Assembly: GCA_021797775.1 (NCBI GenBank) | Contig: JAJZZC010000005.1 | Coordinates: forward strand, 5,719-69,718 | Reading direction: 5' to 3' | DNA length: 64,000 nt | From: Bacillota bacterium | Lineage (GTDB): Bacteria > Bacillota > Sulfobacillia > RBS10-35 > JAJYVN01 | Part shown: in pieces, positions 28,588-51,638 of the stretch | Position numbering within the stretch: the first letter of the stretch is position 1 | How the letters are laid out: each line of letters starts with the position of its first letter | Translations under genes and position numbers: made by a program | The notes under the pieces: model-generated | What the model saw: the letters and a program-made list of their open reading frames with translations, nothing else | Database searches by the model: none | What the model was told of the DNA's origin: nothing

Positions 28588-28594
28588 GCAGCAG

Positions 28595-28634
28595 GGCCCT
28601 GGTCTACAGCGCGTAGGCCGGGGCCTTTCTTTAT
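28595..28634 (+). terminator. Hairpin plus T-tract after the displaced tRNA-Cys 3' fragment
   Basis: GGCCCTGG-15 nt-CCGGGGCC (one G-U pair), followed by TTTCTTTAT. Confidence 0.45.
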
Positions 28635-30848: not shown

Positions 30849-30871
30849 ATCAGGCCGCCAGTGTGTGATCG

Positions 30872-30922
30872 CGGAGGGAGGGGGGGCGCGTTGGGCGCCC
30901 CCCCTCCCTCCGCTTTGCTTCT
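30872..30922. terminator. Strong (18-bp stem) terminator between convergent DeoR and permease genes
   Basis: CGGAGGGAGGGGGGGCGC-GTTGG-GCGCCCCCCCTCCCTCCG is a perfect 18-bp stem, followed by CTTTGCTTCTT. Confidence 0.7.
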
Positions 30923-31255
30923 TGGCGCGCCGTACCCCGCCCTCGCGCGCCGTGCCCGGGCTGTCGGCGGGCGGGGGCGGGAGTGAACGAATCGTGTCCA
31001 CCGACGGCCGAGTGGGCAGGGCGCGGCGTATCCCCGAGTGGGTGCCGGGCCGATGTGCCCTTGGTGCAGCGGGCTCAGGGTAGCGAGCGGCGGAGGGCAC
31101 GGCGCCGGCCCAGCGAGCCGTCCATCACGGTGGACCAACGGGGCGGCGCCGGCGAGACAGGTCGGCATGCGCCCCCAGAAGCAAGGCGCCCCGACCGTCT
31201 GCTGGACGGTCGGGGCGCCTGCATGCGGGTCAGGCTGCCCGTGCCGAGAGGCGGC

Positions 31256-32191
31256 TCAGCCCGTGAGCCCCGCATGGGCCATGGTCTTGATGACACGGCT
31301 CTGGGTCGCCAGGAAGACGATCATGGGTGGGAGCGCCATGACCATCGCCGCGGCCGCCTGCGCACCGGCCATGGCGACACCCGTCTGCCCTGGAACACCG
31401 GCCGCTCCAAGCGTGGCGAACGCCACCGGCAGCGTCTTCAACGAGTCGGTGTGGATGTACAGCTGGGGGGTGACGGCATCATTCCACACCATGTTGAACG
31501 TCAGGAGCACCAACGTCGCCCACGCCGGTTGGGTCGCCGGGTAGATGATCGATTTCAGGATCTGCCACTCGCTGGCGCCGTCGACTCGCGCCGCCTCGAG
31601 GATGTCCGCCGGGATGGAATCGATATACTGCTTCATCAGGAACAAGCCGAAACTGGAAACAACCACCGGCAGGATCAATGCCCAGTAGGTGTTGATCAGG
31701 CCGAGGCCCTGGATGACGAGATAGCGCGGGATCGTGGTCGCCGGACCGGAGTACATGAGGGAGGCGATGATCAAGAACCACATGATGCCATGGCCGGGCA
31801 TGCTCTTGTGCTTGGAAAGCGGATAGGCCGCCACGGTCGAGATGACCACCACCCCGGCCACCACGGAGACAGCGACGAGCAGGCTGTTGAAGAGGTAGCG
31901 GGCAAAGGGCACGGACAGCCCGGACAAGGCCAGGATCAACTGGCTGAAGTTCTCGGTTGTCAGCTGGTACGGGATGATAATCGGCGGGAAGTGGAATAGC
32001 TCGGAATAGGTCATAAAGGCATGACCGAAGAGCACCACGAACGGCAGCGCCATGAAGATCGCAAAAACCACCAGCATGAAGGTTCCGAACAAGGACAACT
32101 CATCGGTCTTAATCTTACCGTGGCGGCGGATTCGCTGCACGGCGGCCGGGCCCGCGCTCCTGGAGGCCGACACTGATGCGCTGGCCAACAC
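31256..32191 (-). CDS. Carbohydrate ABC transporter permease (MalG/LplC-like)
   Basis: EAA-loop block ILEAARVDGASEWQILKSIIYP and six TM helices. GTG 32191 lies 5 nt after GGAGG. Confidence 0.9.
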   Translation of the reverse strand: MLASASVSASRSAGPAAVQRIRRHGKIKTDELSLFGTFMLVVFAIFMALPFVVLFGHAFMTYSELFHFPPIIIPYQLTTENFSQLILALSGLSVPFARYLFNSLLVAVSVVAGVVVISTVAAYPLSKHKSMPGHGIMWFLIIASLMYSGPATTIPRYLVIQGLGLINTYWALILPVVVSSFGLFLMKQYIDSIPADILEAARVDGASEWQILKSIIYPATQPAWATLVLLTFNMVWNDAVTPQLYIHTDSLKTLPVAFATLGAAGVPGQTGVAMAGAQAAAAMVMALPPMIVFLATQSRVIKTMAHAGLTG

Positions 32192-32245
32192 GCTTCCCTC
32201 CTTCAGCCTATACAGCCGTCGCTGCCGGCTGATTGCGTGGGGCGC

Positions 32246-33201
32246 CTAATCCGAAGAAGCCAACCACTTGTATACCGTCATGCCCATGCCGTACGACCAA
32301 GCGAACATGAGCAGGGCGATTGCTGCGGCGTATCCCATCATAAAGCGTGTCGTCGCATAGTCGTTGGCGTAGTCATTGATCGAAAGCGCGGCATAGTCCG
32401 GACTGTTGATGCCGCCCGCGAGGCCGAGCAACCCACTGCCACCGAAGCTGTTGACCACCGCGAAGATCGAGTTGATCAGGAGAAACGGCTTCATCTGGGG
32501 CATGGTGATATACCACAACTCTTGCCATGCGTTCGAGGTGCCGTCGATGCGCGCCGCCTCATAAAGGTCAGGCTTCACAGTCTGCAGCCCGGCGATGAAG
32601 ATGAGAAAGCCGGTTCCCATGCTCATCCAGAGCGTGATGCCAATGAGCACCGGCATGATCAGCTTGGGGTTTGCCAGCCAGGCGATGGGGGCGTGGATGA
32701 AGCCCATTTTGTAGAGCGTGTAGTTGATCAGGCCGTATTGGTCTGTGGAGAAGAAGTACCCTGAAATCAGCCCGACGGTGATGCTGCTCTGCAGGGAGGG
32801 TGCGTAGAGCGCGAGCGTCAGCGGTACGCGCCACGTCAGGCGTACGCGGTTTATAACCCAGGCGAAGAAGAAGGCGAGGAGCAGCCCGACGGGACCAGTC
32901 GCCAGACCGTAGATGAGCGTATTGCGCACCGCGATGATAAACACGTTGTCGTACAGGAACAGGGTGCGAAAGTTCGTCAGGCCGATCCACGTCGGCGGCT
33001 GCAGGATGTCGTAGTAGGTTAGGCTGATGGCGAGGGCAGCCAGAACCGGAAGAATCGTGAACAGGAAAAAGCCGACGAGGAACGGCGAGAGCATGATATA
33101 GGATGCGCGGAATTGCCAAACCTTGCGCAACCAGCGTTGCAAACCAGGGCCGGTACCACTCCGTCGGACAACCCCGGAAACAACCTCGGCCTCTGCCTGC
33201 A
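32246..33201 (-). CDS. Sugar ABC transporter permease (MalF/LplB-like)
   Basis: LYEAARIDGTSNAWQELWYITMPQMKP. ATG 33201 is preceded by AAAGGGGGGA; the longer track ORF start at 33298 is less likely. Confidence 0.9.
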
Positions 33202-33313
33202 TCCGGCGTCCCCCCTTTGACCGCAACGACCGCCACGCATCTGCGAGTTGCGTCTTGTCGCGCCGCGCGGGGGACGGGCACACCGCCCATCCCCCCACGA
33301 CAGCTGGGCGGCG

Positions 33314-36300
33314 CTACGCCCCGGCGATGCCGTAGCGATTCTGTCCGGCGCCCACCCTCGCCAGGCCGAACTGCGCCTCCATGCGATACAGCTCGTCGTT
33401 GATGTTCTGCACCCCCCACAGCAGTTGCTGGCGGGCGTTCTCACCGTTGATCACGACATTGGTCCAGATGTCGTTGATGTAGCGATCCGAGATGTACCCG
33501 CCCGGGACCATTGGCTCAGGGTGCAGGTTCGTGCGGGTCTGCTCCATGACTTTCAGGTCCTGGGATGGCCAGGGTAGATCGGGTAGCGCCTGGATGTTGG
33601 CCGTGTTCCACGCCAACTGTGTGCCGCCGATCGCCTGAATGTCGTGAGCGAATTCCAGCTGGACCGGGGCACTGGTCCACCATTCGACCCATTTCCACGC
33701 GGCGCTGGGGTGCTTGGCGTTGGTGGGGATGATGACCGACGTCGACTCCTGGAGATCGCCGGCCGTATCATTGTACTTGCAGTAGTTGCCCCCCGAAAGC
33801 ACCGGCGGATGGTTGGGGTTGCCAAACGCGCAGGCGCCCTGGGAGACCACCTTGCACGCACCTGCGGCGGTGCACAGATAGGGCGTGGCCGGGATGGGGG
33901 CGACGCTCCAGAGCCCGGCCAACTGCGGCGCGGCGACCGTAATGGTCACGAAGGTCGGATAGTCGGTGATCCCGATCGGCATCTCCCCGGTTTCGAAGCG
34001 CGTGAAGAAGTTCGCGACCAGCGGCACCTGCCACTCGTCGAAGAGGTTCGTCCAGGCCTTGAAGCCGAGGTAGCCGCCCTGGTTGTCGATCGCCGAACGC
34101 AGGCCGTTGGACGTCTTTTCGTAGTAGTGCCCCCCGTTCTGGTACAGGAAGGGGAGGAAGCCCTGGGGGCCAGCCGGGTAATAGAACTCCATCCCGTGGG
34201 CTTGGAGGATCGGCATGAGCTTGTATACTTCGGGCCAGGTGCGTGGCACGCTGACGTGCAGCGACTGGAGGATGTCCTTGCGGTACAGCATCATCATCAT
34301 GCCTTCGGTCTCCGGAACGCCGTACGTTCCCGTCTGTCCGGCGGCGTTGGTGTACGTGTACGGCGTGAGCATACCCGGGGCGAAGCGGGCCGCGACCGTC
34401 GACCAGTTCGGGAACTTGGTGAGGTTATACGCCCCGCCGCGTAAGGCGAAGTCGACTGGGTTGGTGGTCGTCATGCCCGTGGCGACGTCGGGGCCGTGGC
34501 CGGAGGCCTCGGCGAGCAGCACGATGCCGGAGCCGCCGGGAACCACGTTGTAATTGACGTGGACGCCGGTGACCGGCGTGAACTCACTGTTGGACATCTG
34601 GGACATCACCTTGGCCCAGGTCTGGCCCCAACCGACCCAGACGGTGATGCCATTGCTGTATACGCTGCCGATGTCGGTGTAATTGCGGTAGAAGGACAGG
34701 ATGAAGGTACGCCAGGTGGTGACCAGGCTCTGCAGGGGGCTGGCGGAGGCGGACGGCCAGCGGTAGCTGGGAGCGGCGAAGCCGAACCAGTCGATGCTGA
34801 GAGCCTGGTCCTGCATCTGGGTGAGGACGCCCGCCAATGCCGACTCGTCGTTCTGCCATTCGGTCATACCGAGGGGGATGTTACTCGGGTGATCGGCGAA
34901 ACGGGTGAGGTCCTGGGCGGTGATGCGCATCGTGTTCGCCGCGTCTGGTACAACACCACCCGTAATGTAGGTGAGGAAAGCGGCCTGTTGGTTGAGAACA
35001 CGCACCGCGGACCGCATGTCAGGGATGAGGAACGGTAGGGAACTGCCAAGGTCGTAGGTAACGTTGGGATTCGGGTTCGGACCAGTGATCAAGAGGATCT
35101 GGCGCTGCAGCTCCCCCAGAAACTGGGTGGTGCGTTGAAGCGTCGACAGTGCCTGGCCGAGGAGCCCCATCGTCGTTTCGAAGCGGATGGTGTGGGGGCC
35201 TTTCGTTAGGCCGACCAGGGCTGGCTGACCGTTCGGTTGCGAGAGGGTCAGGATCTGCCAATTGTTATTAAAGGGAAACGTAACCCACTGGGCGCCGTTG
35301 AATGGCACCCTGCCGTCGATGAGGATACGCCTGGTCACCGGCGTGCCGACCAATCCCCCGCCCTGTCCCGCTTGGAGCACCCGGAATCCAAGCTTGTATA
35401 GGCCGGTGGTTGGTACCGTGAATTTGTATTGTACCCATTGTGCCGGATACTGGAAGGTGCGGCCGCTGAGTTCGTTGAGAATGAAGTAGCCGTTGGCCGG
35501 AGGCGTCATGCTGGGATACGAGGAGGATCCCGGCTCGATGGTGGGGTCGGACATCATCGAGATGTTCTCACCCTGGACCTCGGTGCAAAGGCCGCAATGG
35601 ACCGGCTTCATGCCGGAGGCCTTCCACTGCGCGAGGGCGGCTTGGTAGCTGGGCGGATTGCTGAGGCCGTGGAAGGTGAAGCTGGTGATCGCCATGGGCG
35701 AGCTGATCTGCGTGACTTCGAGCACGTGCGAGCCGGCCGTCAAGCAGAACAGCAGGGGAGTCTCATACGCCCCCAGGGCATCGCGGGCATTGACGGTCTG
35801 CCACGCCTCGGCCTCTACGGGCACGGGATAGAGGTTGTTGCCCTGGTTGTCCTTGGGGAATTGAACCAGGCCGTTGGGCAGTACCTTCTTGCCGGTGAGT
35901 TTCCAACGCTCGGGGAACGGTGATTGCGCGGTCTCCTGGTACTGGGTTCCGTTATAGCTCTGGGTGCCGGTCGGGCTGGTGAGGTCCAGGGCACACGGCT
36001 GGCTTTCGGGGTTCTTTGTAGAGGGGACGGCCCAAGCGGGTGCCGTAGCGGTGGGGGATGCCGAGGCCGATGGATTGATCCAGGCGGGCAGTTGGGTCGG
36101 GTTGAGCCCGGCTCGCTTGATGGCGGCGAGGACCTGCGGAGAAGTTTGCGCCGCGCCCGAGCCGATGGTCACGACGGGGCCCGTGCCGGGAGGATCGATG
36201 AGGAAGCCACGTTCGCCCGCGGTGTCCTTGCCGCACCACACTGGGTTGACGTTGAGGGTTTGGTTGGTCAGGAAGCTGCTGGCGGAGCGTTCGCCAGGCT

Positions 36301-36895
36301 TGAAGCAGCCGGGGTAGTCATAGTAGTTGAGAGACAGCGCATAGAGACCGGTCTGCGGCACCTTGAAATGATAGTAAAGGTCGTTGACGCTGGTCGGCCA
36401 GCCCAGGGCGGCCTGCTTGTTGCCGGCCAACTCGCCCGCAGGGATCTTCTTGACCCCGGGACTGCCACCGCTGGTCTTGTAGTAGTCGACGGCGGGGATG
36501 GTCACGTGCACGCCAGGCGCGACCACCTTCGCGCCCTGAGCCTCCCACTGAGCGAGGGTGGAGAAGAAATTGCGCTGGCTCAGCACGCCGACAGGCAGTA
36601 CGCTCTGGTCGACGCTCGCCGAGTTGAGGGGACTGACGTTGTATCCGTTAACAGGCAGTGTGTAAGACGCGGTGTGCGTGTTGTCATTCAGTCCCACCGG
36701 GGGATTCGGGAGCCCGTATCCCAGGCCCGAGGCGGGCTGGGGTGTGCCTTTCCGTCCCGAGGTGGGCTGGGATGTCGGCTTGTGGCCCGGGGGCTGAGCG
36801 GCCATGACGGGCGCGCCGGCGGCGATCAACAGAGAGGTCCCCAAGCCCAGCGCGACTACGGCCCGCTCCCACGTGCGGCGCTGCCGCTTCGACAT
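33314..36895 (-). CDS. Giant (~1190 aa) extracellular solute-binding protein: signal peptide, Pro/Thr linker, ~600-aa N-terminal region with two similar modules, C-terminal family-1 (LplA-like) SBP domain
   Basis: MSKRQRRTWERAVVALGLGTSLLIAAGAPVMAAQPP signal. Two similar segments (WEAQGAKVVAPGVHVTIPA...YHFKVPQTGLYALSLNYY and WKASGMKPVHCGLCTEVQG...YKFTVPTTGLYKLGFRVLQ). The C-terminal ~550 aa has an SBP-like composition (ITVWVGWGQTW...). ATG 36895 lies 8 nt after GAGGAG. Confidence 0.85.
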   Translation of the reverse strand: MSKRQRRTWERAVVALGLGTSLLIAAGAPVMAAQPPGHKPTSQPTSGRKGTPQPASGLGYGLPNPPVGLNDNTHTASYTLPVNGYNVSPLNSASVDQSVLPVGVLSQRNFFSTLAQWEAQGAKVVAPGVHVTIPAVDYYKTSGGSPGVKKIPAGELAGNKQAALGWPTSVNDLYYHFKVPQTGLYALSLNYYDYPGCFKPGERSASSFLTNQTLNVNPVWCGKDTAGERGFLIDPPGTGPVVTIGSGAAQTSPQVLAAIKRAGLNPTQLPAWINPSASASPTATAPAWAVPSTKNPESQPCALDLTSPTGTQSYNGTQYQETAQSPFPERWKLTGKKVLPNGLVQFPKDNQGNNLYPVPVEAEAWQTVNARDALGAYETPLLFCLTAGSHVLEVTQISSPMAITSFTFHGLSNPPSYQAALAQWKASGMKPVHCGLCTEVQGENISMMSDPTIEPGSSSYPSMTPPANGYFILNELSGRTFQYPAQWVQYKFTVPTTGLYKLGFRVLQAGQGGGLVGTPVTRRILIDGRVPFNGAQWVTFPFNNNWQILTLSQPNGQPALVGLTKGPHTIRFETTMGLLGQALSTLQRTTQFLGELQRQILLITGPNPNPNVTYDLGSSLPFLIPDMRSAVRVLNQQAAFLTYITGGVVPDAANTMRITAQDLTRFADHPSNIPLGMTEWQNDESALAGVLTQMQDQALSIDWFGFAAPSYRWPSASASPLQSLVTTWRTFILSFYRNYTDIGSVYSNGITVWVGWGQTWAKVMSQMSNSEFTPVTGVHVNYNVVPGGSGIVLLAEASGHGPDVATGMTTTNPVDFALRGGAYNLTKFPNWSTVAARFAPGMLTPYTYTNAAGQTGTYGVPETEGMMMMLYRKDILQSLHVSVPRTWPEVYKLMPILQAHGMEFYYPAGPQGFLPFLYQNGGHYYEKTSNGLRSAIDNQGGYLGFKAWTNLFDEWQVPLVANFFTRFETGEMPIGITDYPTFVTITVAAPQLAGLWSVAPIPATPYLCTAAGACKVVSQGACAFGNPNHPPVLSGGNYCKYNDTAGDLQESTSVIIPTNAKHPSAAWKWVEWWTSAPVQLEFAHDIQAIGGTQLAWNTANIQALPDLPWPSQDLKVMEQTRTNLHPEPMVPGGYISDRYINDIWTNVVINGENARQQLLWGVQNINDELYRMEAQFGLARVGAGQNRYGIAGA

Positions 36896-37846
36896 GCTCG
36901 TCACTCCTCGCTTTGGCGCGCACGGCTGCTGCGCAACTGCCGGCCATGAGGTCGCCGGCGGACCCGATATCCGGTCTCTGAATTCTGCGGCCTGTCGTCA
37001 TTCCCCTGCATCGGGCAACGGGGTACCCACATCTGGCACGCCGTAGGATGGCGCGGTGCCGCCGGCGGCACACCTGCTGGAACGCTTCCTTTAATACGGC
37101 CTCCGGTTGCAACGCGGGTGCGGTGCCGCGGCGGCGGTCCATATGTGAAGTCCGGGACGGTGATATGCCCCGTGAGCGCGCGGACGCCGGCGTCCGCGCT
37201 GGCCGCTTGGGGAGGGGGTGGACCGCGGCCGCGCCGTGGGCGATTGGGTGGTCCGCCTGCTGCCTGCCCGGCACCCTGCCGGCCCACGGGCGCTCGGGCC
37301 ACGGCCTCCAGGCAGGGTTCGCCGCCACGGGCGCATCGGCGCTCGCGTGGGCGGCTGGCGGCATCAGGGATCGACACGGGGCACGGACCGGGTGGCGGCC
37401 GGAGCCGAGCGAGCCGCCGGGTACGGGGTACGGGGTCAGCGGATACGTAGGGCGTTGCGGCGGCACGGCGCAGAAGAGTCGGCACTGCGCGGATGCGGCC
37501 AACGGGGCGCCGAGACGCGGGCGGACACGGCCTCGGGCACGCCAGGCGAGCAGGCCCCGCCCGGGCGGGCGCGCCCGGGCCGGACGGGGGGGGATACGCC
37601 AGAGCGTTCGGATCGGGGTTGCTCAGAAGGCACCAGAGGTGTGAAGGACGGAAGGAGATCGCTGGCGAACGGCCAATGGGGAACTCCACGTGTGGGGTGT
37701 CGAGGATCCCACTCGGGCCGGCGACCGCTTTGCAGTGCGTCATGGGATTAGTCCGTTCGGCACAGGCGGCGTACGGCCTTGTCGATCCGTGAGCCCTTGG
37801 CCTGTGGCGGCGGGGGCGGCGCGAAGAGGGGCGGGGTGCGCTGGCC

Positions 37847-38569
37847 GTGGGGCAAGCAGTGGCGTGGCAGGACAGTGAGGCGGTTGTCGCCGCCCAGGAC
37901 GTGGTGCGGACGTACCGGCGCGGCGCAACTGCGGTCGAGGCGCTCAAGGGGATCACGCTGGTGATTCCGCGGGGACGGATGACGCTGCTGAAGGGCCGGT
38001 CCGGTTCGGGTAAGACGACGATGCTCAACCTCATCGCAGGGCTCGACCGGCCGACCTCCGGTCGCATCCAGTTTCAGGGACGCGAAATCAGCGGACTCGC
38101 GGACGCTGAGTTGACTCGCATGCGGCGCCAAAACATTGGACTGGTGTTCCAGACGTTTGCTCTGCTTCCGACATACTCCGCGTATGAGAACGTGGACTTG
38201 GTCTTACGGATCGCCGGCGTGTCCCTGCGTCAGCGGGACCGCCGCGTGCGGGAGGTTCTGGCGCTGGTCGGTCTGGCGAAGCGTATGTCCCACCGGCCCT
38301 TCGAGCTGTCGGGCGGGGAGCAGCAGCGTGTTTCCATCGCGCGCGCGTTGGCCCCGCACCCGAGCCTCATCCTGGCTGACGAGCCAACTGGGGAACTGGA
38401 CAGCGGGACGGGCTTGGCCATCGTCCGGTTGTTTCGGCGGCTGATGGAAGAAGAGGGCGTGACGGTCTGCCTGACGACGCACGACGCTGCGGTCATGGCG
38501 CTCGCCGACCTGACCTATGAGATCGTCGACGGGCGCATCGTCGGCGAGGTGGGCGCGGGCCATGCGTGA
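37847..38569 (+). CDS. ABC transporter ATP-binding protein (MacB/LolD/YknY type)
   Basis: Walker A GRSGSGKTT, Q-loop, signature LSGGEQQRVSIARAL, Walker B ILADEPTGELD, H-loop TTHD. The start is approximate. Confidence 0.9.
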   Translation: MGQAVAWQDSEAVVAAQDVVRTYRRGATAVEALKGITLVIPRGRMTLLKGRSGSGKTTMLNLIAGLDRPTSGRIQFQGREISGLADAELTRMRRQNIGLVFQTFALLPTYSAYENVDLVLRIAGVSLRQRDRRVREVLALVGLAKRMSHRPFELSGGEQQRVSIARALAPHPSLILADEPTGELDSGTGLAIVRLFRRLMEEEGVTVCLTTHDAAVMALADLTYEIVDGRIVGEVGAGHA

Positions 38570-39665
38570 GACGTGCGGTTGCGCTATGCGACGGGGCAGA
38601 CCGGGACAGCGATGGACTCCGCGCGTGGGCGTCGTCGTCGGCCTGCTGACGTGTCTCGCGCTTCTCCCAGCCTGTGGAACCCGGACGGTGAGCGCGACTG
38701 TCGCCCAGTCCCTGGTGGTGCCGCAGACGCCGCCGCTAGCGCTCACGAAGGCATTCCGTGGGACAGTCAAGTCGACGGTGCAGGTCAGTGGTCAGGTCGT
38801 ATCGCTGCGGACGGCCCGGCTGTACTTCCACAACGGCGGCACCGTGGCGAGCGTCAGCGTTCTCGACGGTGAAGCGGTGGGCAAGGGTCAAGTGCTGGCG
38901 TCCTTGGATACGGGGAATCTGCCCTATCAGATCCTAGCTGCCCGGCTCAACGTCCAGCGAGACCGCCTCAACCTCCAGAACATGCAGTTGTCGCAAGCCC
39001 CGCTGTCCAGCGCGGCGGCGGCCGCGGCCGCCGCGATCCAAGAGCGGCAGGCGATGCTGACCCTGGCCCAGGATGAGGTTGCATGGAAAGCCGATCGGCT
39101 GGCCTTGGCGGAGGACGAGGTGGTGGCACCCTTTGCCGGCCAGGTCAACGACGTCTCGGTTGCGCCCGGAGACCAGGTCAATGGCTTCCAGACGGTCATG
39201 GTGCTCAGCGACCCGTCTCAGGAATCCTTCGTCGCGAACATCAATCAGACCACCGCTCAAGAGCTGGCAGCCGGCCAGCACGCGGTTTTCACTTACAATG
39301 CCAGCAGCGGGTCAGCCCACCAGGCGGCTGTCCGGAGTGTCTTCATCCCGACGGCGGCGCAGATCGCGCAGGCGGAGACAAACGGGTTGACCCCGCCCCT
39401 GCCCAGCGTCACCTTGGCGGTACAGGGGTTGCGACGGCGACCCCCGCTTGGCGCCGCCTTCACCGCCACGATTACGTTGGCCCAAGCCGCGAACGTCGTC
39501 TACGTCCCCAGCGACGCCATCCGGCAGTTTAACGGGTTCACCTACGTAGACGTCTTGCACCATGGCACGATCGCAGAGGTTCCCGTGCAGGTGGGGTTAC
39601 AGGGCGACACGACCACTGTGGTGACCAAGGGCCTTGTCGCTGGAGAGCGGGTGGTGGAGCCATGA
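38562..39665 (+). CDS. Efflux adaptor lipoprotein (HlyD/MacA/YknX-like membrane fusion protein)
   Basis: Lipobox LLPACG after a basic N-terminus, coiled-coil hairpin region (QILAARLNVQRDRLNLQNMQL...), and beta-barrel/lipoyl-like segments (APFAGQVNDVSVAPGDQV). ATG overlaps the upstream stop. Confidence 0.8.
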   Translation: MRETCGCAMRRGRPGQRWTPRVGVVVGLLTCLALLPACGTRTVSATVAQSLVVPQTPPLALTKAFRGTVKSTVQVSGQVVSLRTARLYFHNGGTVASVSVLDGEAVGKGQVLASLDTGNLPYQILAARLNVQRDRLNLQNMQLSQAPLSSAAAAAAAAIQERQAMLTLAQDEVAWKADRLALAEDEVVAPFAGQVNDVSVAPGDQVNGFQTVMVLSDPSQESFVANINQTTAQELAAGQHAVFTYNASSGSAHQAAVRSVFIPTAAQIAQAETNGLTPPLPSVTLAVQGLRRRPPLGAAFTATITLAQAANVVYVPSDAIRQFNGFTYVDVLHHGTIAEVPVQVGLQGDTTTVVTKGLVAGERVVEP

Positions 39666-42712: not shown

Positions 42713-42717
42713 GCACG

Positions 42718-43689: not shown

Positions 43690-44969
43690 CGGCGGCGGGC
43701 TTGGGGAGGGGCGGCTCGCCCAGACTGGGCACAGCCGGAGGGCCGGCCCGCGCGGTGGATGCGGTTCTGGTGAAAGGACCAAGACGTGAGCGAGGTTGGA
43801 GAGCGCGCAGGTCGCGTCGGTGAGAGGGCGAGTCTGTGCCATAGTCGGTCCGCGGTCCGGCGTCGCGGCGGGGCGCGGGGGAGGGGCGGCCGCGGCAGCC
43901 AGGCCCTGGCAAAGGTCGGGCCCGCGCGGGGAACCGCCCCCGATCCGGGGCGCAGGACTGCGATGGCGCGAGGCTGGAGGGCGCACAGGTCGCGTGGTGG
44001 AGGGCGAGCCTGCGAAACGGGCGGACGAGACGTCGACAGGCGTCACGTCCGCGCGAACCCTTATCGACGATGCTGTTGTGCGCCGCCCGCGCCGCCCGCG
44101 CCGCCCCACGGGATGACGGCCCACGACGCCTGCCGGCATGCCGTGTGGAATGTGGCCCCCGTCGCCCGCGCGCCTGCTACGGAGCCTTCGTGCGCTGGGG
44201 GAGGGGCCGCGGAGCGCTGCTCCGGCTCGGCGGCAGAGCGCACGGGTCGTCCGGGGCCAGTGTTACCCGCCATCTGCGTCTGCGGCGGCCGGCGCCGCGC
44301 CGAGGGTAGCCCGCGCGGGGTTCGCCGAGGGCGATCGTGCCAGTGCCCCGCGCCGGTGCGTACGCGACCGTGCCATCGGGGCCAGCGGCGTGGAAGGGGC
44401 AGTAACGCCACCCGTGGCACGTGGGTGCCCGGGCCAGAGCCGCGGCCAAGCACAACTGAGGTGCCTTTGGCGTGACAGGGCGTGCCGCCCGCGAGGGCAG
44501 GCGCCGGCCACGCCTCGCTGACCTCACGCCCGGCGCGTGCCTCCGCGGAAAGGCGGGGGCGCGCCGTCGGGCTGGCGTGCGAGAGCGGCACCCCGTCGTG
44601 GAGGGAGGCGCCGCAGGATATCGCTGGGTTTGCCGGCAAGCCGACCGCCCTCGGAAGGGGTCCCTCGGCAGCGGCGCGTTGGACTGCCCATGCCTCCCGT
44701 CCTGCGCCAGGGGTCGGCGCGCAACGGTCGTTCTATGCCGCCGGCGCCGAGGACATCACCCGGACCGACCAACCCTCCTTCGCGGATGAGCGATTTTTGG
44801 CGACCGGACAGAGGAGTCCCGCGTCCGCAAGACGAACTCCCGAGCACCAGCACTTCCTTGCCGCATGAGGGATGGGGATGAGCTTGGCGGAGCTTTCCGG
44901 CGGCCAATCGGCGCGCGTCCCGTGGGTCCACAACATCGCTGCCGCCGAGGGCGGCCGGTCGGCCGGGGG

Positions 44970-47216
44970 GTGGATTGGGTGAGACGTGTGCGTGCGTGGT
45001 GCGTAGCGCTTCTCACGTGCCTGACGGCGGTCGCGGGCGCGGTGCTGTTGCCCGCAACCGCGGCGGCCGCTATCCCCACGAACTACTTCACGTTGGGAAC
45101 GGACCTCCTGCCCGTGCCGGCCCCTGCCCCGTACCGACCGGTCAAGGCCGTCTATGCGGAGACCTACACGTGGCACGGGAAGCCGCTCGGGCCGTTCTCG
45201 AACATACAGGACATGCGCACCGACTCGCACGGCGACGTGTGGGTCGTGGATACCGGGAACAACCGCGTCATCGAGTTCAATCCGACGCTCACCAAGGTGC
45301 TCCTGGTGATCGGCGGGCCCAACGCAACGGGCCCGGCCGCCCTCAACGGTCCGCAGGGCATCGCGATCCGGGGCGGGCTGGTCTACGTGGCCGACACCGG
45401 CAACAGCCGGCTCGCCGTGTTCGCGGCGAGCAACGGTGCCTACATTGACCAGCTGCAGCCGCTGAACCAGTCCCTGACCCTGCGGACGTTGAAGGTGAAG
45501 TTCGTCCCCAATAAGGTGGCAGTGGGGCCGGACGGCACGATCTACGTCTCGATCGCCGGTCAGGCGTACGGCTTGGCGAAGTTCAGCCCCAACGGCCAAT
45601 TCGACGGTTTCTTCGCCCCCAACGGCGTGGGGTACAATTTGGGATATCATATCGCCAAGCTGCTCGAATCGCCTCAGCAGCGGGCGCAAAACGCGGCGAT
45701 CTTGCCCCCCGAGGTCAATAACGTGCTCGTCGGTCCCAACGGTTACATCTACACGACGTCGGTGGATACGACGACGGACCAGATCCGTCGCCTGAACGCC
45801 GTGGGGACAGACACCCTCAATCTGCCCGGGACACATCTCTTATATGGCCTGCCTGTCAGTAGCCTCCCCCAATATGTGTTCCAGAACCTCAACACGCAGG
45901 TGACTTCGTCGAGTGGGCCGATCGCGGCGAACGCCCTGCAGCCGTTGCTCGTGTCCATAGCGGTGAACAACCAGGGCATCATCACCGTGATCGACCAGTT
46001 GACGGATTACGTGATGCAGTACAGCCCGGATGGCAGGCTGCTCTATACGTGGGGCGGCCTGGACAACGGCAACGGCATTCTGGGGCTGTTCGAACAACCG
46101 ACGGCCGTCGTGGCCCTCCCCAATGGTGAGATCGTTGTCGCTGACGGCCTCGAGAACAACCTGACGGTCTTCAAGCCGACGCAGTTCGCGCTCGACGTGC
46201 AGAAGGGCGCCGTGGACTACCACGCCGGTCTCTACCAGCAGGCGATCAAGCCCTGGACCGCGGCACTGCACTACGACAGCAACTATGACCTGGCTCACGA
46301 TGAGATCGGTCAGGGTTTGCTCTCCGAGGGTGAAGGGCTGGGCAGTACGCCGGCTGTGTATACCGCGCAGCTTGCGATGTTTTCACGCGCCATCCGCCAG
46401 TTCTACCTCGCGGGAGACAAGGTCGGGTTTGGCCAAGCCTTCTCCTGGTATCGGCACATCTGGATGCGCCTGAACTTCACGTGGGTGTTCCTGACCGTCC
46501 TTGGCGCGTGGCTGGTGCTCTGGCTGTTGAATAAGTACCTGCGGGCCTACCTGCGGGAACATCCCATCGAGTTTTACGGCGCGTGGGTGCGCAACCAGTT
46601 CGTGCGCATGTGGCCAATGGCCTGGCGCGTGTTGCGCCATCCGGCGGAGGCCTTCTTCCAGTTGAAGTACGAGAACCAGGGCACCCTTTACCAGGGCTTG
46701 GTGCTGATCGCCCTGGCGTTCATCCTGCAAGTGCTGCGCTTGACCTGGACGAACTTCGACTTTAGCCCCTTGGTACCAGGCCGCACGAACCTCGTTGTGA
46801 ACGCCGGTCAGTTCTTGCTCCCGCTCGCGACGTGGATCGCTGCCAACTTCATGGTGGGCGACATGTACGATGGTGAGGCGGATCTTTCGGAGATCATCTA
46901 TGGCAGCGCGTACGCACTGCTGCCGTTCATTACCATGGCCATGCCGCTCACGATCCTCTCGCACACCTTCGTGCCGAGCGACGGATTCTACCCCGCCTTC
47001 GTGCTGATGCAGAAGCTCTGGGTGCTCTATATGTTCTTCACGCAGGTCCGCATCTTCCATAACCTGGAGTGGAACCAGGCCTTCAAGGCGAGCTTGGTGA
47101 CGGTGGTCGGCATCGGCGTGTTGTGGACGATGATGGCCATCGGTATCGGCCTCGGGGAGCAGGTGTACTCGTTCGTGACCCAGATCATCCAGGAGATCAT
47201 TCTGCTGCGCAGTTAG
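44970..47216 (+). CDS. Fusion protein: signal peptide, NHL-repeat beta-propeller, C-terminal Yip1-type multi-TM domain
   Basis: NHL-like blades (DSHGDVWVVDTGNNRVIEF, PQGIAIRGGLVYVADTGNSRLAVF, VGPDGTIYVS, VNNQGIITVIDQLTDYVMQY, LPNGEIVVADGLENNLTVF). The last ~270 aa has five to six TM helices of Yip1 type. GTG start candidates at 44970, 44979 and 44988. Confidence 0.8.
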   Translation: MDWVRRVRAWCVALLTCLTAVAGAVLLPATAAAAIPTNYFTLGTDLLPVPAPAPYRPVKAVYAETYTWHGKPLGPFSNIQDMRTDSHGDVWVVDTGNNRVIEFNPTLTKVLLVIGGPNATGPAALNGPQGIAIRGGLVYVADTGNSRLAVFAASNGAYIDQLQPLNQSLTLRTLKVKFVPNKVAVGPDGTIYVSIAGQAYGLAKFSPNGQFDGFFAPNGVGYNLGYHIAKLLESPQQRAQNAAILPPEVNNVLVGPNGYIYTTSVDTTTDQIRRLNAVGTDTLNLPGTHLLYGLPVSSLPQYVFQNLNTQVTSSSGPIAANALQPLLVSIAVNNQGIITVIDQLTDYVMQYSPDGRLLYTWGGLDNGNGILGLFEQPTAVVALPNGEIVVADGLENNLTVFKPTQFALDVQKGAVDYHAGLYQQAIKPWTAALHYDSNYDLAHDEIGQGLLSEGEGLGSTPAVYTAQLAMFSRAIRQFYLAGDKVGFGQAFSWYRHIWMRLNFTWVFLTVLGAWLVLWLLNKYLRAYLREHPIEFYGAWVRNQFVRMWPMAWRVLRHPAEAFFQLKYENQGTLYQGLVLIALAFILQVLRLTWTNFDFSPLVPGRTNLVVNAGQFLLPLATWIAANFMVGDMYDGEADLSEIIYGSAYALLPFITMAMPLTILSHTFVPSDGFYPAFVLMQKLWVLYMFFTQVRIFHNLEWNQAFKASLVTVVGIGVLWTMMAIGIGLGEQVYSFVTQIIQEIILLRS

Positions 47217-47241
47217 CAGGCGAGGCCACGCTGCGGCGGCG

Positions 47242-49653
47242 TTGACTCTGGCAGCAAGGGGTGTGGGGGCCTTGGTGGGTGGTCGCACGCTGAAGTCCAT
47301 CACGTTCTGGGTCGGGGCGGCTAGCGTGGTGGCATGCACGGCACCGTTGGGAGTGGCTGCCGCCGCTCCTTCCGGGGGGGCAGCGGCCCGGGCGGCTGCC
47401 AGCAGGACTGCGACGGTCGCCTCCGCCGGCCCGTCGTCACCGAGAATCTCAGCCGGATCATCGCGGGTGACCTTGCCCCCGGTACCCAAGGGCACGGTTG
47501 TCGTGGCGAACGATGGGACCCTGCGCATGGCGGTCAACATGAAGACGGGATGGTTCCAGTTGGTGGATGAGCGGAATGGGGCGGCATGGTACAGTGGCCC
47601 GCCCGATCCGAGCCAGTACGCGCAGAACACCCATTGGCAGAACATTCTGCAAAGTGACTTCACTATGGGACGGACGACTACCGAGCGCACCAATGTCCAG
47701 GAGGACATGAGCGCGGTCGGCGTGCCGGACGATGGCGGTCAGCTCGCCGTGCATCGCATCGCTAACGGGGTTGCCCTGGATTACAACTACACCCTGGATA
47801 AGATCTCGTTCCAGGGCGATCTCACGATTCACGGGGCCCATCTGGTCGCGACCGTTCCGTGGTCGAGCGTGAAGGAGCAGAGCTGCCCTCGCTTCACGCC
47901 CCCCCCACCACACATGGCGCTCATCCTCTTCTACTTCCCGCCGGAATGCTACGAGCTGGTCGACATTCACTTCCTGCCCGCCCTCGGCTACGGTGCCCCG
48001 GGTCAGCCGGGTTATGCCGTGATCCCTGACGGCTCCGGGGCGATCGTGAATTACGCGAAGGATCACCCCGTCTACACGGTCGATTACAACATGCCTGTGT
48101 ACGGGGACCCGACCACACCGCCCGGGCTGGACCAGTGGTATCCCGAGGCGAGCATGCCGATCTTCGGGCAGGTCCACCTGAACCCGAAGAACGCCGCGGG
48201 GAACGCCGCGATGCTGGGCGTCATTCAGAACGGCGCGTCGCAATCCAACGTGGTCATGATCCCTGCGGGACGCCAGGCGAATCTGTACTTGACGTCGGCG
48301 GACTTTGTGTACCGGCCGCTGTTCGAGCAGTTTCTGTCGGGCAGCCTGAACAGCAGCGGTCGCTACGCCTGGCATCCGTTGCCAGGCAATCGGCAGGTGA
48401 CCTACTACTTCTTGGCCGGTCCACACGCGACCTACAGCGGCTTGGCCCTACGCTATCGGCAGTACCTGATACAGACCCAACACGTCAAGCCCTTGACCCC
48501 GAAGCCTACGGCGCCCTTCCTGCTGGAGGTGCTGAACGGCGCCCGGGAGAGCGGCGTGCTCTTTGATCCCCTGCAGGTGGCGACGAGCTTCAGCCAGACG
48601 CAGCAGATGATCCAGTCGCTTGAGGCCAAGGGTGTGAAGTCCCTGCGCGTGACGTTGGAGGGATGGATGCTGAACGGGATCAACTGGCGGTCGCTGCCGT
48701 TCATTTGGCCTCCCGACAGCGCCCTGGGTGGTACGGGTGGGCTGCAGCGGCTGGCGACCTGGGGCAGGGGGCATCACGCTTCGATCGTCCTTGCGTTGAA
48801 CCTCTATCTCGGCTACAAGAACGGCCTTGGCTTCTCGACGCGCTACGGGTCGATTCATTTCGAGGACCAACTTCCCATGCAGGACCCGACGCTCCTGAAC
48901 AAGATTGGATACCTGATTTCGCCCAACATCGCCAACCAGCGCCTCTTTCCGCCTCTGTTAGCGGACGCCCAGCGCGTCGGGGCCGCTGGCATGGACTTTC
49001 AGTATCTGGCCCGGGACGTGTATCCCAATTACCAGATCGGCAACGTGCTGTCCCGTTCGCAGTCCGCGGCGCAGTGGATGCATATGGTGAGTTCAGCGAA
49101 GTCGACGTTGGGAACGTCAGGGGTGCAGGGCGGCAATCTCTACGCCATCGGACATGCGAGCTACTTCTACCAAGCCCCGACCACCGACAGCGGCTTTGAC
49201 TACGAAACACGGGCTGTGCCGTTATGGGAGATGGTGGTTCACGGCTTGGCGCTGTACTCGGGTACGGCGTCGAACCTCCGCAGTAATCCGACGCGCCAGC
49301 AGTTGCAAATGATCGAGGACGGCGCCCTGCCGGTGTGGGAGTTGACGTGGCGGTCGGCGGACGTGCTGCGCTATTCGCCTCAGTACAACTTCCTCTACTC
49401 TTCGCAGTTCAGCCAGTGGGAATCGCAGGCCGTGGCCAACTACCGCCACGAGGTCGCGAACGGGTACTCGAGCTTGGCGTATGTGGCCATCACGAACAAC
49501 GTGCAGTTGCAGTCGGGCGTCTTCGAGACCGACTATGCGAACGGCGCGCGGGTCATCGTGAACTTCAACCGGCACCCGGTCACCCTGCCGCAGTACCACG
49601 GCGCGGTCGTGCGGGCGCAGAACTACATCGTGCTCGGAACGGGGGCGTCCTAA
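47242..49653 (+). CDS. Large secreted protein, DUF5696-like / possible glycoside-hydrolase-like fold (family assignment tentative)
   Basis: Signal-like N-terminus (ITFWVGAASVVACTAPLGVAAAAPSGG). 803 aa, Trp/Tyr-rich, non-repetitive. I recall DUF5696 proteins occurring next to sugar ABC permeases and Yip1 proteins, but cannot verify this here. Confidence 0.75.
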   Translation: MTLAARGVGALVGGRTLKSITFWVGAASVVACTAPLGVAAAAPSGGAAARAAASRTATVASAGPSSPRISAGSSRVTLPPVPKGTVVVANDGTLRMAVNMKTGWFQLVDERNGAAWYSGPPDPSQYAQNTHWQNILQSDFTMGRTTTERTNVQEDMSAVGVPDDGGQLAVHRIANGVALDYNYTLDKISFQGDLTIHGAHLVATVPWSSVKEQSCPRFTPPPPHMALILFYFPPECYELVDIHFLPALGYGAPGQPGYAVIPDGSGAIVNYAKDHPVYTVDYNMPVYGDPTTPPGLDQWYPEASMPIFGQVHLNPKNAAGNAAMLGVIQNGASQSNVVMIPAGRQANLYLTSADFVYRPLFEQFLSGSLNSSGRYAWHPLPGNRQVTYYFLAGPHATYSGLALRYRQYLIQTQHVKPLTPKPTAPFLLEVLNGARESGVLFDPLQVATSFSQTQQMIQSLEAKGVKSLRVTLEGWMLNGINWRSLPFIWPPDSALGGTGGLQRLATWGRGHHASIVLALNLYLGYKNGLGFSTRYGSIHFEDQLPMQDPTLLNKIGYLISPNIANQRLFPPLLADAQRVGAAGMDFQYLARDVYPNYQIGNVLSRSQSAAQWMHMVSSAKSTLGTSGVQGGNLYAIGHASYFYQAPTTDSGFDYETRAVPLWEMVVHGLALYSGTASNLRSNPTRQQLQMIEDGALPVWELTWRSADVLRYSPQYNFLYSSQFSQWESQAVANYRHEVANGYSSLAYVAITNNVQLQSGVFETDYANGARVIVNFNRHPVTLPQYHGAVVRAQNYIVLGTGAS

Positions 49654-50559
49654 ATGAGGGAAAGCGGCGCGGTGCGGATTCAGCAGCGCAGCAAGGGCCG
49701 GGGCCGTCTGCATCGGCGGCGTTTGGTGGAGTTCGTCGGTTTCATTGCCCTTTGGCTCATAGGGTTCGTCGCCTTTCAGGCGTATCCGTTGGTCCAGTCG
49801 CTGTACATCAGTTTCGCGACCCTGAATTTTCAGGCTTCCGGGGTGCAGTGGGTCTGGGTAGGACTGCTGAATTACCAGAATGCACTGACCGTCGATGTGA
49901 ACTTTGTGCCTTACCTCGTGCAGGCAATTCTCTCGACGGTCGTCGAGATGCCGTTGATCATCTTCTTTGCGCTGGTGGCCGCAACCCTGCTCAAGCAGGG
50001 CCTGTTCGGGACAACGTTGTTCCGTGGCCTATTTTTCCTGCCGGTCGTCATCGGCTCGTCCGCCGTCATGTCGAATCTCTTGGGTGGCGGTGGCGTGCCT
50101 GTCCTCGTCCACGGCCGTTTTCTAGGCGTTATCATTCGAGTTGTCGGACCGACCATCGGGCAGGACCTGTTGACCGTTTTCAGCCAGATGGCGCTGGTAT
50201 TGTGGAGATCCGGTGTGCAGGTGCTGCTGTTCCTCGCCGGGCTGTACGGGGTGAACCCGACCTATTACGAGGTCGCGCGCATCGACGGCGCGAACGCCTG
50301 GCAGACCTTTCTCAAGGTGACGCTGCCTGCCATTTCACCCATGATGGTGCTCATCTGGATCTACACCCTCGTGGATACCTTCACGGATCCGGTGTTGGAC
50401 CCCGTGTTGCGTTACATCGAGACGGTTGGATTGCAGGGTGACTTGCAACTGGGGCTGGCTGGCGCGATGGGCTGGCTGTCTCTGGTGGTTGTATTTGTGA
50501 TGCTGTTGATCATCTTCCGTTACGCGTCGCGGCACACTTACTACGCGGGGGAGAGGTAG
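49654..50559 (+). CDS. Sugar ABC transporter permease (MalF-like), second set
   Basis: YYEVARIDGANAWQTFLKVTLPAISP EAA loop and six TM helices. ATG abuts the upstream stop (TAAATG). Confidence 0.9.
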   Translation: MRESGAVRIQQRSKGRGRLHRRRLVEFVGFIALWLIGFVAFQAYPLVQSLYISFATLNFQASGVQWVWVGLLNYQNALTVDVNFVPYLVQAILSTVVEMPLIIFFALVAATLLKQGLFGTTLFRGLFFLPVVIGSSAVMSNLLGGGGVPVLVHGRFLGVIIRVVGPTIGQDLLTVFSQMALVLWRSGVQVLLFLAGLYGVNPTYYEVARIDGANAWQTFLKVTLPAISPMMVLIWIYTLVDTFTDPVLDPVLRYIETVGLQGDLQLGLAGAMGWLSLVVVFVMLLIIFRYASRHTYYAGER

Positions 50560-50560
50560 T

Positions 50561-51562
50561 ATGGCCAGAGAGCTCGCATCGGTCGAATTCGTTGCGAATC
50601 CCTTTCAGCGCGCGCTCGACAAGGCGCGAAGCATTGGCCCCCGCTGGGTGCTCAACCTCGTGCTGTACGCTGTACTCATCGACATGGGCTTCGTGTATTT
50701 CCTCCCGCTGGCTTTCATGGTCCTGACGTCGTTCAAGTCGCCGCTCGACCTGGAGAACCCGACGGTGGTGTGGCTGCCTACGCAGCTGTTCGTACAGAAC
50801 TACACGTTCTCATGGGAACAGCTGAGCTACATCCCCGCTGTGGAACGTACGTTGATCTGGGTTGCGGTCGCGACACTGGGGCAGATCTTTTCGACGGCGC
50901 TGGTCGGCTACGGATTCGCGCGTTACAGCCGGCGTTTTAAAATTGCGGACGTACTCTTCCTGTTGGCCGTGTTCACGTTCTTGGTGCCGCCACAGACCAT
51001 TGTCGTTTCACTGTTTTTAAACTTCAAGTTGCTGGGCTGGTTGAACACATACTACCCGCTTACGGTGCCGGAGTGGTTCGCTCAGGGCTTGCGCGGCGCG
51101 TTCTTTATCTTCATCTTCCGACAGGCGTTCAAGGCGTTGCCATATGAACTGGAGGAAGCGGCGCGGGTAGACGGCGCCGGTCCGCTGTCGATATTCTTTC
51201 GTGTGATGTTGCCCCTAGTCAAGCCGTCCCTGTCCGTGGCATTGGTGTTCTCCGTCGTCTGGCATTGGAATACCACGTTTGGGCCGTCGAACTTCCTGCA
51301 GGAGAACTACAAGGCTTGGCCGTTGTCGATGGAGCTGCAGGAGTTCCAGAATGCGGTGCTGACCCAGAACAACCAGATGGCGCAGGCGTCCCAGATGATG
51401 ACGCAGAGCGGCGCCACTTCTTCTCCGAATACCGTGACATCGGCGGATCAGGGGGCGATCATGGCGGCGGTGGTGCTGGTGATCCTACCGCCGGTCCTAT
51501 TCTATCTGTTGATTCAACGAACGTTCGTGCAGGGCATTGAGCGTACCGGCTTGATCGAATAG
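50561..51562 (+). CDS. Carbohydrate ABC transporter permease (MalG-like), second set
   Basis: LEEAARVDGAGPLSIFFRVMLPLVKPS and six TM helices. ATG lies 1 nt after the upstream stop. Confidence 0.9.
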   Translation: MARELASVEFVANPFQRALDKARSIGPRWVLNLVLYAVLIDMGFVYFLPLAFMVLTSFKSPLDLENPTVVWLPTQLFVQNYTFSWEQLSYIPAVERTLIWVAVATLGQIFSTALVGYGFARYSRRFKIADVLFLLAVFTFLVPPQTIVVSLFLNFKLLGWLNTYYPLTVPEWFAQGLRGAFFIFIFRQAFKALPYELEEAARVDGAGPLSIFFRVMLPLVKPSLSVALVFSVVWHWNTTFGPSNFLQENYKAWPLSMELQEFQNAVLTQNNQMAQASQMMTQSGATSSPNTVTSADQGAIMAAVVLVILPPVLFYLLIQRTFVQGIERTGLIE

Positions 51563-51589: not shown

Positions 51590-51638
51590 GCGGTAGCGGG
51601 GGGTGGCCGCTCGGTGAGCGGTTGCCCCCCGCTACCGC
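51590..51638 (+). terminator. Long GC hairpin after the permease operon (terminator/REP-like; no T-tract)
   Basis: GCGGTAGCGGGGGG ... CCCCCCGCTACCGC is a perfect 14-bp stem, with an inner GCCGCTC/GAGCGGT stem. Confidence 0.5.

Follow-up and report, generated by a model that had tools for sequence, protein, structure and literature searches.

A DUF5696-Yip1-permease locus of an uncultured Bacillota bacterium as a probable lineage-specific rearrangement of a conserved glycan capture and import cassette

The DNA analysed here, hereafter the window, is a stretch of 64,000 nucleotides from a Bacillota bacterium (assembly GCA_021797775.1, contig JAJZZC010000005.1, positions 5,719 to 69,718), and its positions 31256-51562 hold a locus with two divergent arms that encode a giant solute-binding protein (SBP), two pairs of sugar-type permeases, a protein with NHL and Yip1 domains, a DUF5696 protein and a MacB-type transport module. 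We consider, with a probability of roughly 0.6, that this locus is a lineage-specific rearrangement of an ancient and conserved cassette for the capture and import of glycans, carried by monoderms and Chloroflexi. Only the insertion of the MacB-type module and the divergent split are limited to the clade of the window; the rest is a widespread cassette and not a unique composite. A preliminary description made from the window alone had listed these genes and placed a DeoR-family regulator and strong hairpins at the flanks of the two arms, and all of this was recovered from the list of open reading frames (ORFs), the Pfam and NCBIfam scans of the window and a hairpin scan. The cassette components of the window are the following:

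31256-32191, minus strand: permease p2 of the first pair, MalG/UgpE-like (BPD_transp_1, E 3e-13; best NCBIfam match UgpE; EAA loop ILEAARVDGAS; orthogroup p2)
32246-33298, minus strand: permease p1 of the first pair, MalF/UgpA-like (BPD_transp_1, E 5e-13; EAA loop LYEAARIDGTS; orthogroup p1)
33314-36904, minus strand: giant SBP, ORF of 1196 aa (SBP_bac_1 and SBP_bac_8 matches)
44979-47216, plus strand (the ORF opens at 44865): protein with NHL, TPR, a membrane helix and Yip1 (NHL 66 bits; Yip1 38.6 bits)
47242-49653, plus strand: DUF5696 protein of 803 aa (Pfam DUF5696, PF18952, E 1e-117; N-terminal signal/anchor segment)
49654-50559, plus strand: permease p3 of the second pair, MalF-like and divergent (BPD_transp_1 weak, E 0.0065; EAA loop YYEVARIDGAN; orthogroup p3)
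50561-51562, plus strand: permease p4 of the second pair, MalG-like (BPD_transp_1, E 6e-14; EAA loop LEEAARVDGAG; orthogroup p4)

The conservation of the cassette was assessed on 61 loci collected by a scan for a DUF5696 peptide motif with one genome per species, gene context playing no part in their selection, and all ORFs of these and of the loci gathered earlier were classified by profiles grown from the window proteins; the cassette counts refer to non-redundant loci with enough flank. In its canonical form, the cassette is co-directional and runs from a giant SBP (900-1100 aa) through p1, p2, an NHL-TPR protein (~480-570 aa, with a C-terminal membrane helix), a Yip1 protein (~200-260 aa) and the DUF5696 protein to p3 and p4, the NHL and Yip1 proteins being fused in some loci (~700 aa), as in the window. 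The upstream half (giant SBP, two permeases, NHL, Yip1 and DUF5696, in this order) was found in 39/43 loci, the downstream permease pair in 49/53, and the whole cassette was collinear in 36 of the 41 loci, two of the five exceptions being loci of the window's own clade. Among the carriers are Lachnospiraceae, Oscillospiraceae and Christensenellales of rumen and gut, several species of Paenibacillus, Anaerolineae and Limnochordia; the loci L013, L027, L038 and L050 come from Paenibacillus thermotolerans, P. nasutitermitis, P. harenae and P. cisolokensis. These counts bear out the earlier statement that Yip1, DUF5696 and sugar permeases form a recurrent and uncharacterised neighbourhood in Firmicutes; indeed, our literature search found no publication on the DUF5696 family or the cassette, and nothing relevant on SBPs bearing carbohydrate-binding modules (CBMs) or on Yip1 together with NHL, ABC transporters or polysaccharide utilisation loci (PULs). 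The coupling of a giant SBP and a MacB-type pump to Yip1 and DUF5696 had likewise been presented as undescribed: this is overstated for the giant SBP and the first permease pair, which belong to the core of the cassette (39/43 loci); only the MacB-type module is clade-specific, and its functional coupling is putative.

The four permease positions correspond to four orthogroups, since 186/186 permeases have their nearest neighbour from another locus at the same position, with mean scores of 210-312 bits within a position against only 62-77 bits when the two MalF-like positions, or the two MalG-like ones, are compared with each other. Therefore, the second pair is no stray pair of sugar permeases, and the giant SBP is a core component. 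The explanation that the genes adjoin by chance and form no system is refuted for the cassette and we give it next to no weight, because the same eight genes are kept in the same order in 36/41 loci from several phyla and each of the four permease positions has an orthogroup of its own; nothing speaks for chance as far as the cassette is concerned, and only the stand-alone MacB-type module seen elsewhere (see below) is compatible with an accidental insertion. The gene-neighbourhood comparison proposed in the preliminary description thus found an adjacency that recurs in relatives and in several phyla.

With regard to the direction and energy of transport, the EAA coupling loop (EAA-x2-DG) of binding-protein-dependent importers is present in 4/4 window permeases, which, with their BPD_transp_1 matches, places them among the CUT1 permeases. 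The giant SBP is the probable SBP of the first pair, and none is encoded in the window for the second pair, a peculiarity already pointed out for this locus that holds in most loci as well. No ATPase of the MalK/MsmX/MsiK type is encoded between positions 20001 and 62000 of the window, where the ATPase profile matched only the two MacB-type ATPases; as a control, the same profile detected the MalK-type ATPase of locus L004, one of the two Paenibacillus cassettes (L004, L027) that are headed by a MalK-type ATPase with an OB_MalK domain. The absence of a sugar ATPase from the locus, which had been singled out earlier, is real but nothing unusual: importers of this class often rely on a shared ATPase whose gene lies at another site, as with MsmX, the shared 'multitask' ATPase of the type I importers of Bacillus subtilis (PMC12632257).

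The genes that flank the cassettes point to glycan catabolism. The 95 nearest flanking ORFs include GH43 with GH43_C2 (11), normal-sized SBPs (15), AraC-type regulators (3), GH26 (1) and GH130 (1), and the 60 next-nearest include glycoside hydrolases of families GH3 (4), GH10 (2) and GH5 (2), GDSL esterases (4) and one each of GH95, GH88, GH31, GH2 and a GH65-related protein; LacI-type regulators also occur among the cassette neighbours, and genes of GH38, GH42 and CE2 follow the cassette of L007. The cassette flanks are enriched in carbohydrate-active enzymes, which is the context of a catabolic glycan locus and not of polymer synthesis. This bears on the second proposal of the preliminary description, namely that the locus secretes or assembles a surface polymer, as might be read from its MacB-type exporter with adaptor and from the several large surface proteins that it encodes. 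We disfavour this proposal as very improbable: the four conserved permeases have the EAA loops of SBP-dependent importers and are accompanied by an SBP, the surrounding genes encode glycoside hydrolases of catabolism and regulators of sugar genes instead of glycosyltransferases or polymerases, and the exporter module is missing from nearly all cassettes. Its first proposal, the capture, processing and import of a large glycan, is favoured by the same EAA loops, SBP and glycoside hydrolase neighbours, and the proteins that would act on the glycan are considered in turn.

The giant SBP is composed of a signal/anchor segment, two beta-sandwich modules resembling CBM35/CBM6, a helical bundle and a MalE-like SBP domain. 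The latter was matched by SBP_bac_1 at residues 779-1082 (E 4e-16) and by SBP_bac_8 at residues 796-1110, and in the Pfam scan no family matched the 770 residues that precede it. The start codon likely lies at position 36895, giving 1193 aa; the database protein P0027, which is identical to the window protein, has 1193 aa. Hydropathy places a hydrophobic segment at the N-terminus, and the N-terminal module is homologous throughout the family; in relatives it gives matches to CBM_35, CBM_6, Golvesin_C and GH115_C. In addition, the profile of this module matches the CBM35 region of cycloisomaltooligosaccharide glucanotransferase (PDB 5x7g, E 3e-8) and other CBM6/35 structures, and its helical part matches coiled-coil bundles. 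Note that the N-terminal modules were assigned from these profiles and not from the structure model, with which Foldseek retrieved oligosaccharide SBPs only, and these through the C-terminal domain only.

The DUF5696 protein is covered by its Pfam model almost from end to end (residues 172-795 against model positions 6-612 of 612, with 394.2 bits for a gathering cut-off of 25.6), and the family is large, with 6366 cluster representatives (50% identity) at E <= 0.001 and 3784 at E <= 1e-30. The AlphaFold2 model (pLDDT 78.8, pTM 0.82) predicts a (beta/alpha)8 barrel with one beta-sandwich on its N-terminal and another on its C-terminal side. The top Foldseek matches of this model all belong to GH129 (ZgGH129, 5opq, E 2e-31; NagBb, 5wzn, E 5e-25), with structural alignments at 12-13% identity and TM-scores of 0.57-0.72, and further matches are found to GH101, a GH36-like galactosaminidase, GH31 and GH36. 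At the sequence level, the family profile gave local matches to NagBb (E 9e-7) and ZgGH129 among the PDB sequences, at E values of ~1e-6, and a single-sequence PDB search with the DUF5696 protein gave no match, so that the similarity to GH129 stays short of the family level. Over 162 diverse members, the conserved positions include the PDGSG loop (D263), R406, W475, H667, Y672, N678 and E692, of which D263, in the N-terminal domain, and E692 are the acidic residues conserved throughout the family.

The third surface protein of the cassette combines a six-bladed NHL propeller of the PknD sensor type, whose profile matches PknD and the designed 'Pizza' derivatives, with TPR repeats, C-terminal to which hydropathy places a membrane helix and then the Yip1 membrane domain (38.6 bits for a cut-off of 28.6). 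Its start at position 44979 is that of the database gene call. N-terminal hydrophobic segments were seen by hydropathy throughout the families of the DUF5696 protein, the NHL protein and the giant SBP, and these signal/anchor segments lead us to conclude that all three proteins face outward.

In the window, the NHL-Yip1 gene is the next gene after the MacB-type module, behind a spacer. These features are:

37847-38569, plus strand: ATPase 1 (ABC_tran, E 1e-34; best NCBIfam models FtsE, LolD and MacB)
38586-39665, plus strand (the ORF opens at 38517): MacA/YknX-like membrane-fusion adaptor (TIGR01730, RND_mfp)
39662-42712, plus strand: fused double-FtsX permease of 1016 aa (two Pfam FtsX stretches; hydropathy)
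42718-43689, plus strand: ATPase 2 (ABC_tran, E 4e-31; best NCBIfam model LolD)
43690-44978: spacer of 1.29 kb, reaching 78% G+C, in which no gene is credible

All the parts of a MacB-type exporter are present in this module, i.e., an FtsX permease with a large extracytoplasmic domain, ATPases of the MacB/LolD/FtsE type and an adaptor of the RND/MFP family. The adaptor, which likely starts at the ATG at 38586, scores 118.6 bits with TIGR01730 (cut-off 94.9), and its closest solved structures are those of MacA (E 9e-15); a hydrophobic segment followed by LLPAC, read by eye as a lipobox-like motif, suggests that it is probably a lipoprotein. The double-FtsX permease has 10 predicted hydrophobic/membrane segments and two outside segments of ~260-300 aa, with MacB_PCD annotated on some of its homologues, and is very remote from solved structures (best PsdB, E 0.056). 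For both ATPases the best NCBIfam models are FtsE, LolD and MacB, all below the equivalog cut-offs, and ATPase 2 carries a C-terminal extension of ~90 aa with a weak AbrB/MraZ resemblance (MraZ E 9e-4, below the cut-off) that is kept in 7/7 module-carrying loci. The module is limited to the clade of the window (7/70 loci). In an unrelated genome (L073), ATPase, adaptor, FtsX (31% identical) and ATPase genes stand alone, with neither Yip1 nor DUF5696, which makes the four-gene module a self-contained unit, and the more distant FtsX homologues P0060 and P0068 are each encoded singly, among genes of an unrelated kind. We therefore treat the MacB-type module as a separate pump, co-located and perhaps co-regulated, and not as a demonstrated subunit of the importer. 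It should be noticed that in L073 (4477-12752) the four-gene module lies divergently next to an Opp-type importer with an oversized SBP_bac_5 protein of 822 aa; this adjacency of pump and importer may be fortuitous, or may hint at a link between the pump and binding proteins of large size at the surface.

Starting from domain content, surface topology and gene order, which are observed, we infer the mechanistic steps that lie beyond them as follows. The giant SBP would hold a polymer or large oligosaccharide by means of its two CBM35/CBM6-like modules, and its MalE-like domain would pass an oligosaccharide to p1/p2, while the membrane-tethered, GH129-like DUF5696 protein would trim or bind the glycan at the surface. 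The PknD-like NHL propeller and the TPR repeats, anchored via or beside Yip1, may organise the proteins at the surface together with p3/p4, the second translocator, through which the second product would be taken up; a MalK/MsmX-type ATPase encoded elsewhere would power both translocators and the DeoR protein would act as the local repressor. In the clade of the window, the segment of giant SBP, p1 and p2 would have been inverted, and a self-contained, four-gene exporter of the MacB type would have landed between the two arms.

Several observations weigh against the reading as a capture and import cassette. Most loci have one SBP for two translocators, and a normal-sized SBP occurs in only 15 of the 95 nearest flanking ORFs; AlphaFold modelled the full-length giant SBP poorly (pLDDT 55); and the MacB-type module sits exactly beside the Yip1 gene, as in the YknWXYZ precedent treated below, which could mean a real coupling. 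Concerning DUF5696, the catalytic pair of GH129 could not be mapped onto its residues, and position 596, the best-conserved aspartate of the barrel, is Asp in 137/162 members and Asn in the clade of the window; across scattered lineages, ~15% of the members have another residue there (N, Q, E, H, S or C). As its catalytic residues are not assignable and D596 is not invariant, the DUF5696 protein may bind a glycan rather than cut it. A narrower idea, that the enzyme is dead in the clade of the window only (N596, L671, Q629), was not supportable, because position 596 varies family-wide and positions 671 and 629 are not conserved.

The same observations could be taken further, with DUF5696 and the NHL propeller as non-catalytic surface receptors that replace the SBP for p3/p4 in a binding-protein-independent variant of the importer. 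We hold this to be quite improbable. It would account for the lack of a second SBP in most cassettes and for the DUF5696 and NHL/Yip1 genes lying always directly upstream of p3/p4, and it agrees with an NHL propeller of the PknD sensor type instead of an enzyme type and with a DUF5696 barrel in which no family-wide catalytic dyad was found. However, the conserved polar set of D263, R406, H667, Y672, N678 and E692 is typical of an active site or a sugar-binding site alike, so that it does not distinguish binding from catalysis, and p1/p2 and p3/p4 alike could be served by the giant SBP or by an orphan SBP whose gene lies outside the locus. Moreover, no precedent for such an importer is known to us.

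The position of the MacB-type module raises a different alternative. In B. subtilis and B. amyloliquefaciens, the YknWXYZ system consists of the Yip1 protein YknW, the adaptor YknX, the ATPase YknY and the FtsX permease YknZ, and YknW, the only studied bacterial Yip1 protein, is an accessory component that modulates the assembly of YknXYZ (PMC4887032). By analogy, the MacB-type module and NHL-Yip1 of the window clade might form a YknWXYZ-like machine in which Yip1 joins exporter, adaptor and sugar translocators, for instance to rid the cell of a toxic by-product, or to draw out or expose some surface component that glycan capture needs. In agreement with it, four lineages have the module immediately 5' of NHL-Yip1, although their FtsX permeases are only ~57-61% identical to that of the window, and the precomputed Pfam annotation gives YknX_C matches in adaptors of the clade (weak in L001, faint in L002 and L070). 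We nevertheless regard such a machine as unlikely, since the Yip1 protein of the cassette occurs without the MacB-type module in nearly all other sampled loci, and the module without Yip1 in L073. Its distance also argues against it, as 184-1290 bp separate the module from NHL-Yip1, compared with 14-25 bp between the genes of the canonical cassette. In addition, YknZ is a single-FtsX homodimer served by one ATPase gene, in contrast to the fused double FtsX and two ATPase genes found here, and unrelated neighbours (the ACT_7 and Orn/DAP decarboxylase genes) are kept as well, so that the adjacency may reflect shared ancestry alone. A more far-reaching version, to which we attach little credence, would make the cassette a new class of import supercomplex, with Yip1 as a scaffold for both translocators and the NHL propeller and DUF5696 as receptors for the SBP-less p3/p4, and with the Yip1 of the window clade also docking the MacA/MacB-type exporter, as YknW does, thereby coupling import and export.

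Returning to the rearranged capture and import cassette, the related contigs bear the label 'Bacillota bacterium' and have sporulation genes (Spore_YtfJ) in the vicinity; the organism of the window is therefore an uncultured member of the Bacillota of high G+C (~73%). Divergent, split arms were found only in the clade of the window, with the MacB-type module directly upstream of NHL-Yip1. The window DUF5696 protein is identical to one in the metagenome-assembled genome GCA_027418175.1 (L001). The plus-strand order of ATPase, adaptor, FtsX, ATPase, NHL-Yip1, DUF5696, two permeases and ACT_7 recurs in three further lineages, namely L002 and L005, where the DUF5696 proteins are 57% and 54% identical to that of the window, respectively, and L072, which is cut off within NHL-Yip1. 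The complete divergent architecture, including the DeoR gene, was found through giant-SBP homologues in L070 and L072, and since L070 overlaps L002 at 99.9% DNA identity, these two together represent one complete lineage.

Some further features of the relatives deserve mention. GCA_027418175.1 holds two versions of the locus (L001 and L003), with DUF5696 proteins 57% identical and an ACT_7 gene after both, and is either a bin of two related organisms or a genome with a duplicated region. A window-clade DUF5696 gene (50% identical) also lies on a 4.2-kb contig binned as Streptosporangiaceae (L012), whose assignment to an actinomycete is probably a binning error. In the relatives, the first gene of the MacB operon encodes a secreted Cu_amine_oxidN1 protein (L070, 4027-5172; L072, 8080-9174; L002, 14-1159; L005, 396-1514), which in L002, L070 and L072 also shows a faint DUF4352 match. 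The divergent region of the window is without this gene, and no remnant of it was found there by tblastn; it was either lost from the lineage of the window or never there. The spacer between ATPase 2 and NHL-Yip1 also differs, being 1.29 kb long in the window against 184-371 bp in relatives. Within it, the sequence of 43677-43836 recurs in the same direction, in degenerate form (73%), at 43853-44012, and a database ORF of 229 aa, without family match, looks spurious.

The boundaries of the locus and its regulatory context are marked by the following features:

30093-30848, plus strand: DeoR-family regulator, convergent with the minus-strand arm (Pfam DeoRC, E 1e-49; HTH_DeoR, E 6e-17)
30871-30913: hairpin 3' of the DeoR gene, with a perfect, G+C-rich stem of 19 bp and a T-rich tail
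31184-31220: hairpin just 3' of the stop codon of the minus-strand arm, with a perfect stem of 16 bp
36905-37846: divergent intergenic region, 942 bp, G+C-rich, without the Cu_amine_oxidN1 gene that relatives have there
51590-51638: hairpin immediately 3' of the plus-strand arm, with arms of 23 nt that are 87% complementary

The DeoR gene occupies the same position in L070 and L072. An Rfam scan of 29000-53000 returned tRNA only and no other RNA element, a promoter and terminator scan of 36800-45100 gave nothing exceeding the shuffled expectation, and no convincing operator-like 11-mers were common to the divergent region, the spacer and the sequence 5' of the DeoR gene.

A recently acquired island was also considered, given that the locus has 62% G+C against 73% and a tRNA nearby, and this was rejected. 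The GC3 (G+C content at third codon positions) of the locus genes, 0.78-0.86, is close to the 0.81-0.89 of the flanks, and the G+C dip is confined to the first and second codon positions, as a consequence of protein composition; the flanks of the locus (ACT_7 and Orn/DAP decarboxylase) are, in addition, common to the window and its relatives, which also argues against an acquired island. Upstream of the sugar locus and separate from it, positions 16200-29340 hold a probable integrative element, edged by tRNA genes (Val, Phe and Cys at 15348-16191; Val-GAC at 29262-29338) and encoding a DUF3987 protein (18139-19563), a ResIII/DEAD helicase (20776-22944) and a phage-type integrase (27236-28408). 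As the integrase and the tRNA-Val belong to this separate element, they lend no support to an island reading of the locus. On the other side, a 2Fe-2S subunit and a molybdopterin-type large subunit, of the xanthine dehydrogenase / CO dehydrogenase kind, are encoded at 52864-55735, where they separate the ACT_7 gene from the Orn/DAP decarboxylase gene (56847-58460); these two genes adjoin in L002 and L005, and the pair between them looks like an insertion specific to the lineage of the window.

Altogether, placing DUF5696 in a fixed cassette, with a GH129-like fold and a CBM-bearing SBP, provides a testable model of glycan capture in fibre-degrading bacteria. The cassette is a second context for bacterial Yip1 proteins besides YknWXYZ, and the clade of the window, in which both contexts meet, represents a natural experiment on Yip1.

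When compared to known systems, the DUF5696 protein shares with CAZy family GH129 (the alpha-N-acetylgalactosaminidase NagBb and the 3,6-anhydro-D-galactosidase ZgGH129) the same three-part fold and a weak but significant profile similarity; it differs by an identity of only 12-13%, a separate Pfam family and a catalytic Asp/Glu pair that was not mapped, and by its invariable secretion or membrane tethering and the ABC permease genes that always enclose its gene. The module of the window resembles MacAB(-TolC) in that MacA is the closest solved kin of its adaptor, its ATPases score with LolD, MacB and FtsE and its FtsX permease has large outside domains, whereas no outer-membrane partner is seen in the locus and the permease is fused in tandem, not to an ATPase, and is very remote from solved structures. 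With YknWXYZ it has in common a Yip1 gene beside a MacA/YknX-like adaptor, MacB-type ATPases and an FtsX permease, in a single-membrane bacterium; here, however, Yip1 is fused to NHL and TPR and is part of a sugar-import cassette, the FtsX is a fused double one with two different ATPase genes, one of them with an extra C-terminal domain, a long spacer separates module and Yip1 gene, and the module has no known link to protection from peptide toxins. The closest likeness of the cassette as a whole is with Gram-positive PULs that employ CUT1 importers (MalEFG-like, energised by MsmX/MsiK), with which it shares two-permease translocators with EAA loops, a MalE-like SBP domain, an ATPase whose gene mostly lies outside the locus, a glycosidase-like protein at the surface, glycoside hydrolases as neighbours and a sugar regulator. 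Unlike these PULs, the cassette has two dedicated translocators and usually one SBP, this SBP is 2-3x the normal size through its two CBM35/CBM6-like modules and helical bundle, and the genes for NHL-TPR, Yip1 and DUF5696 have a constant place between its permease pairs.

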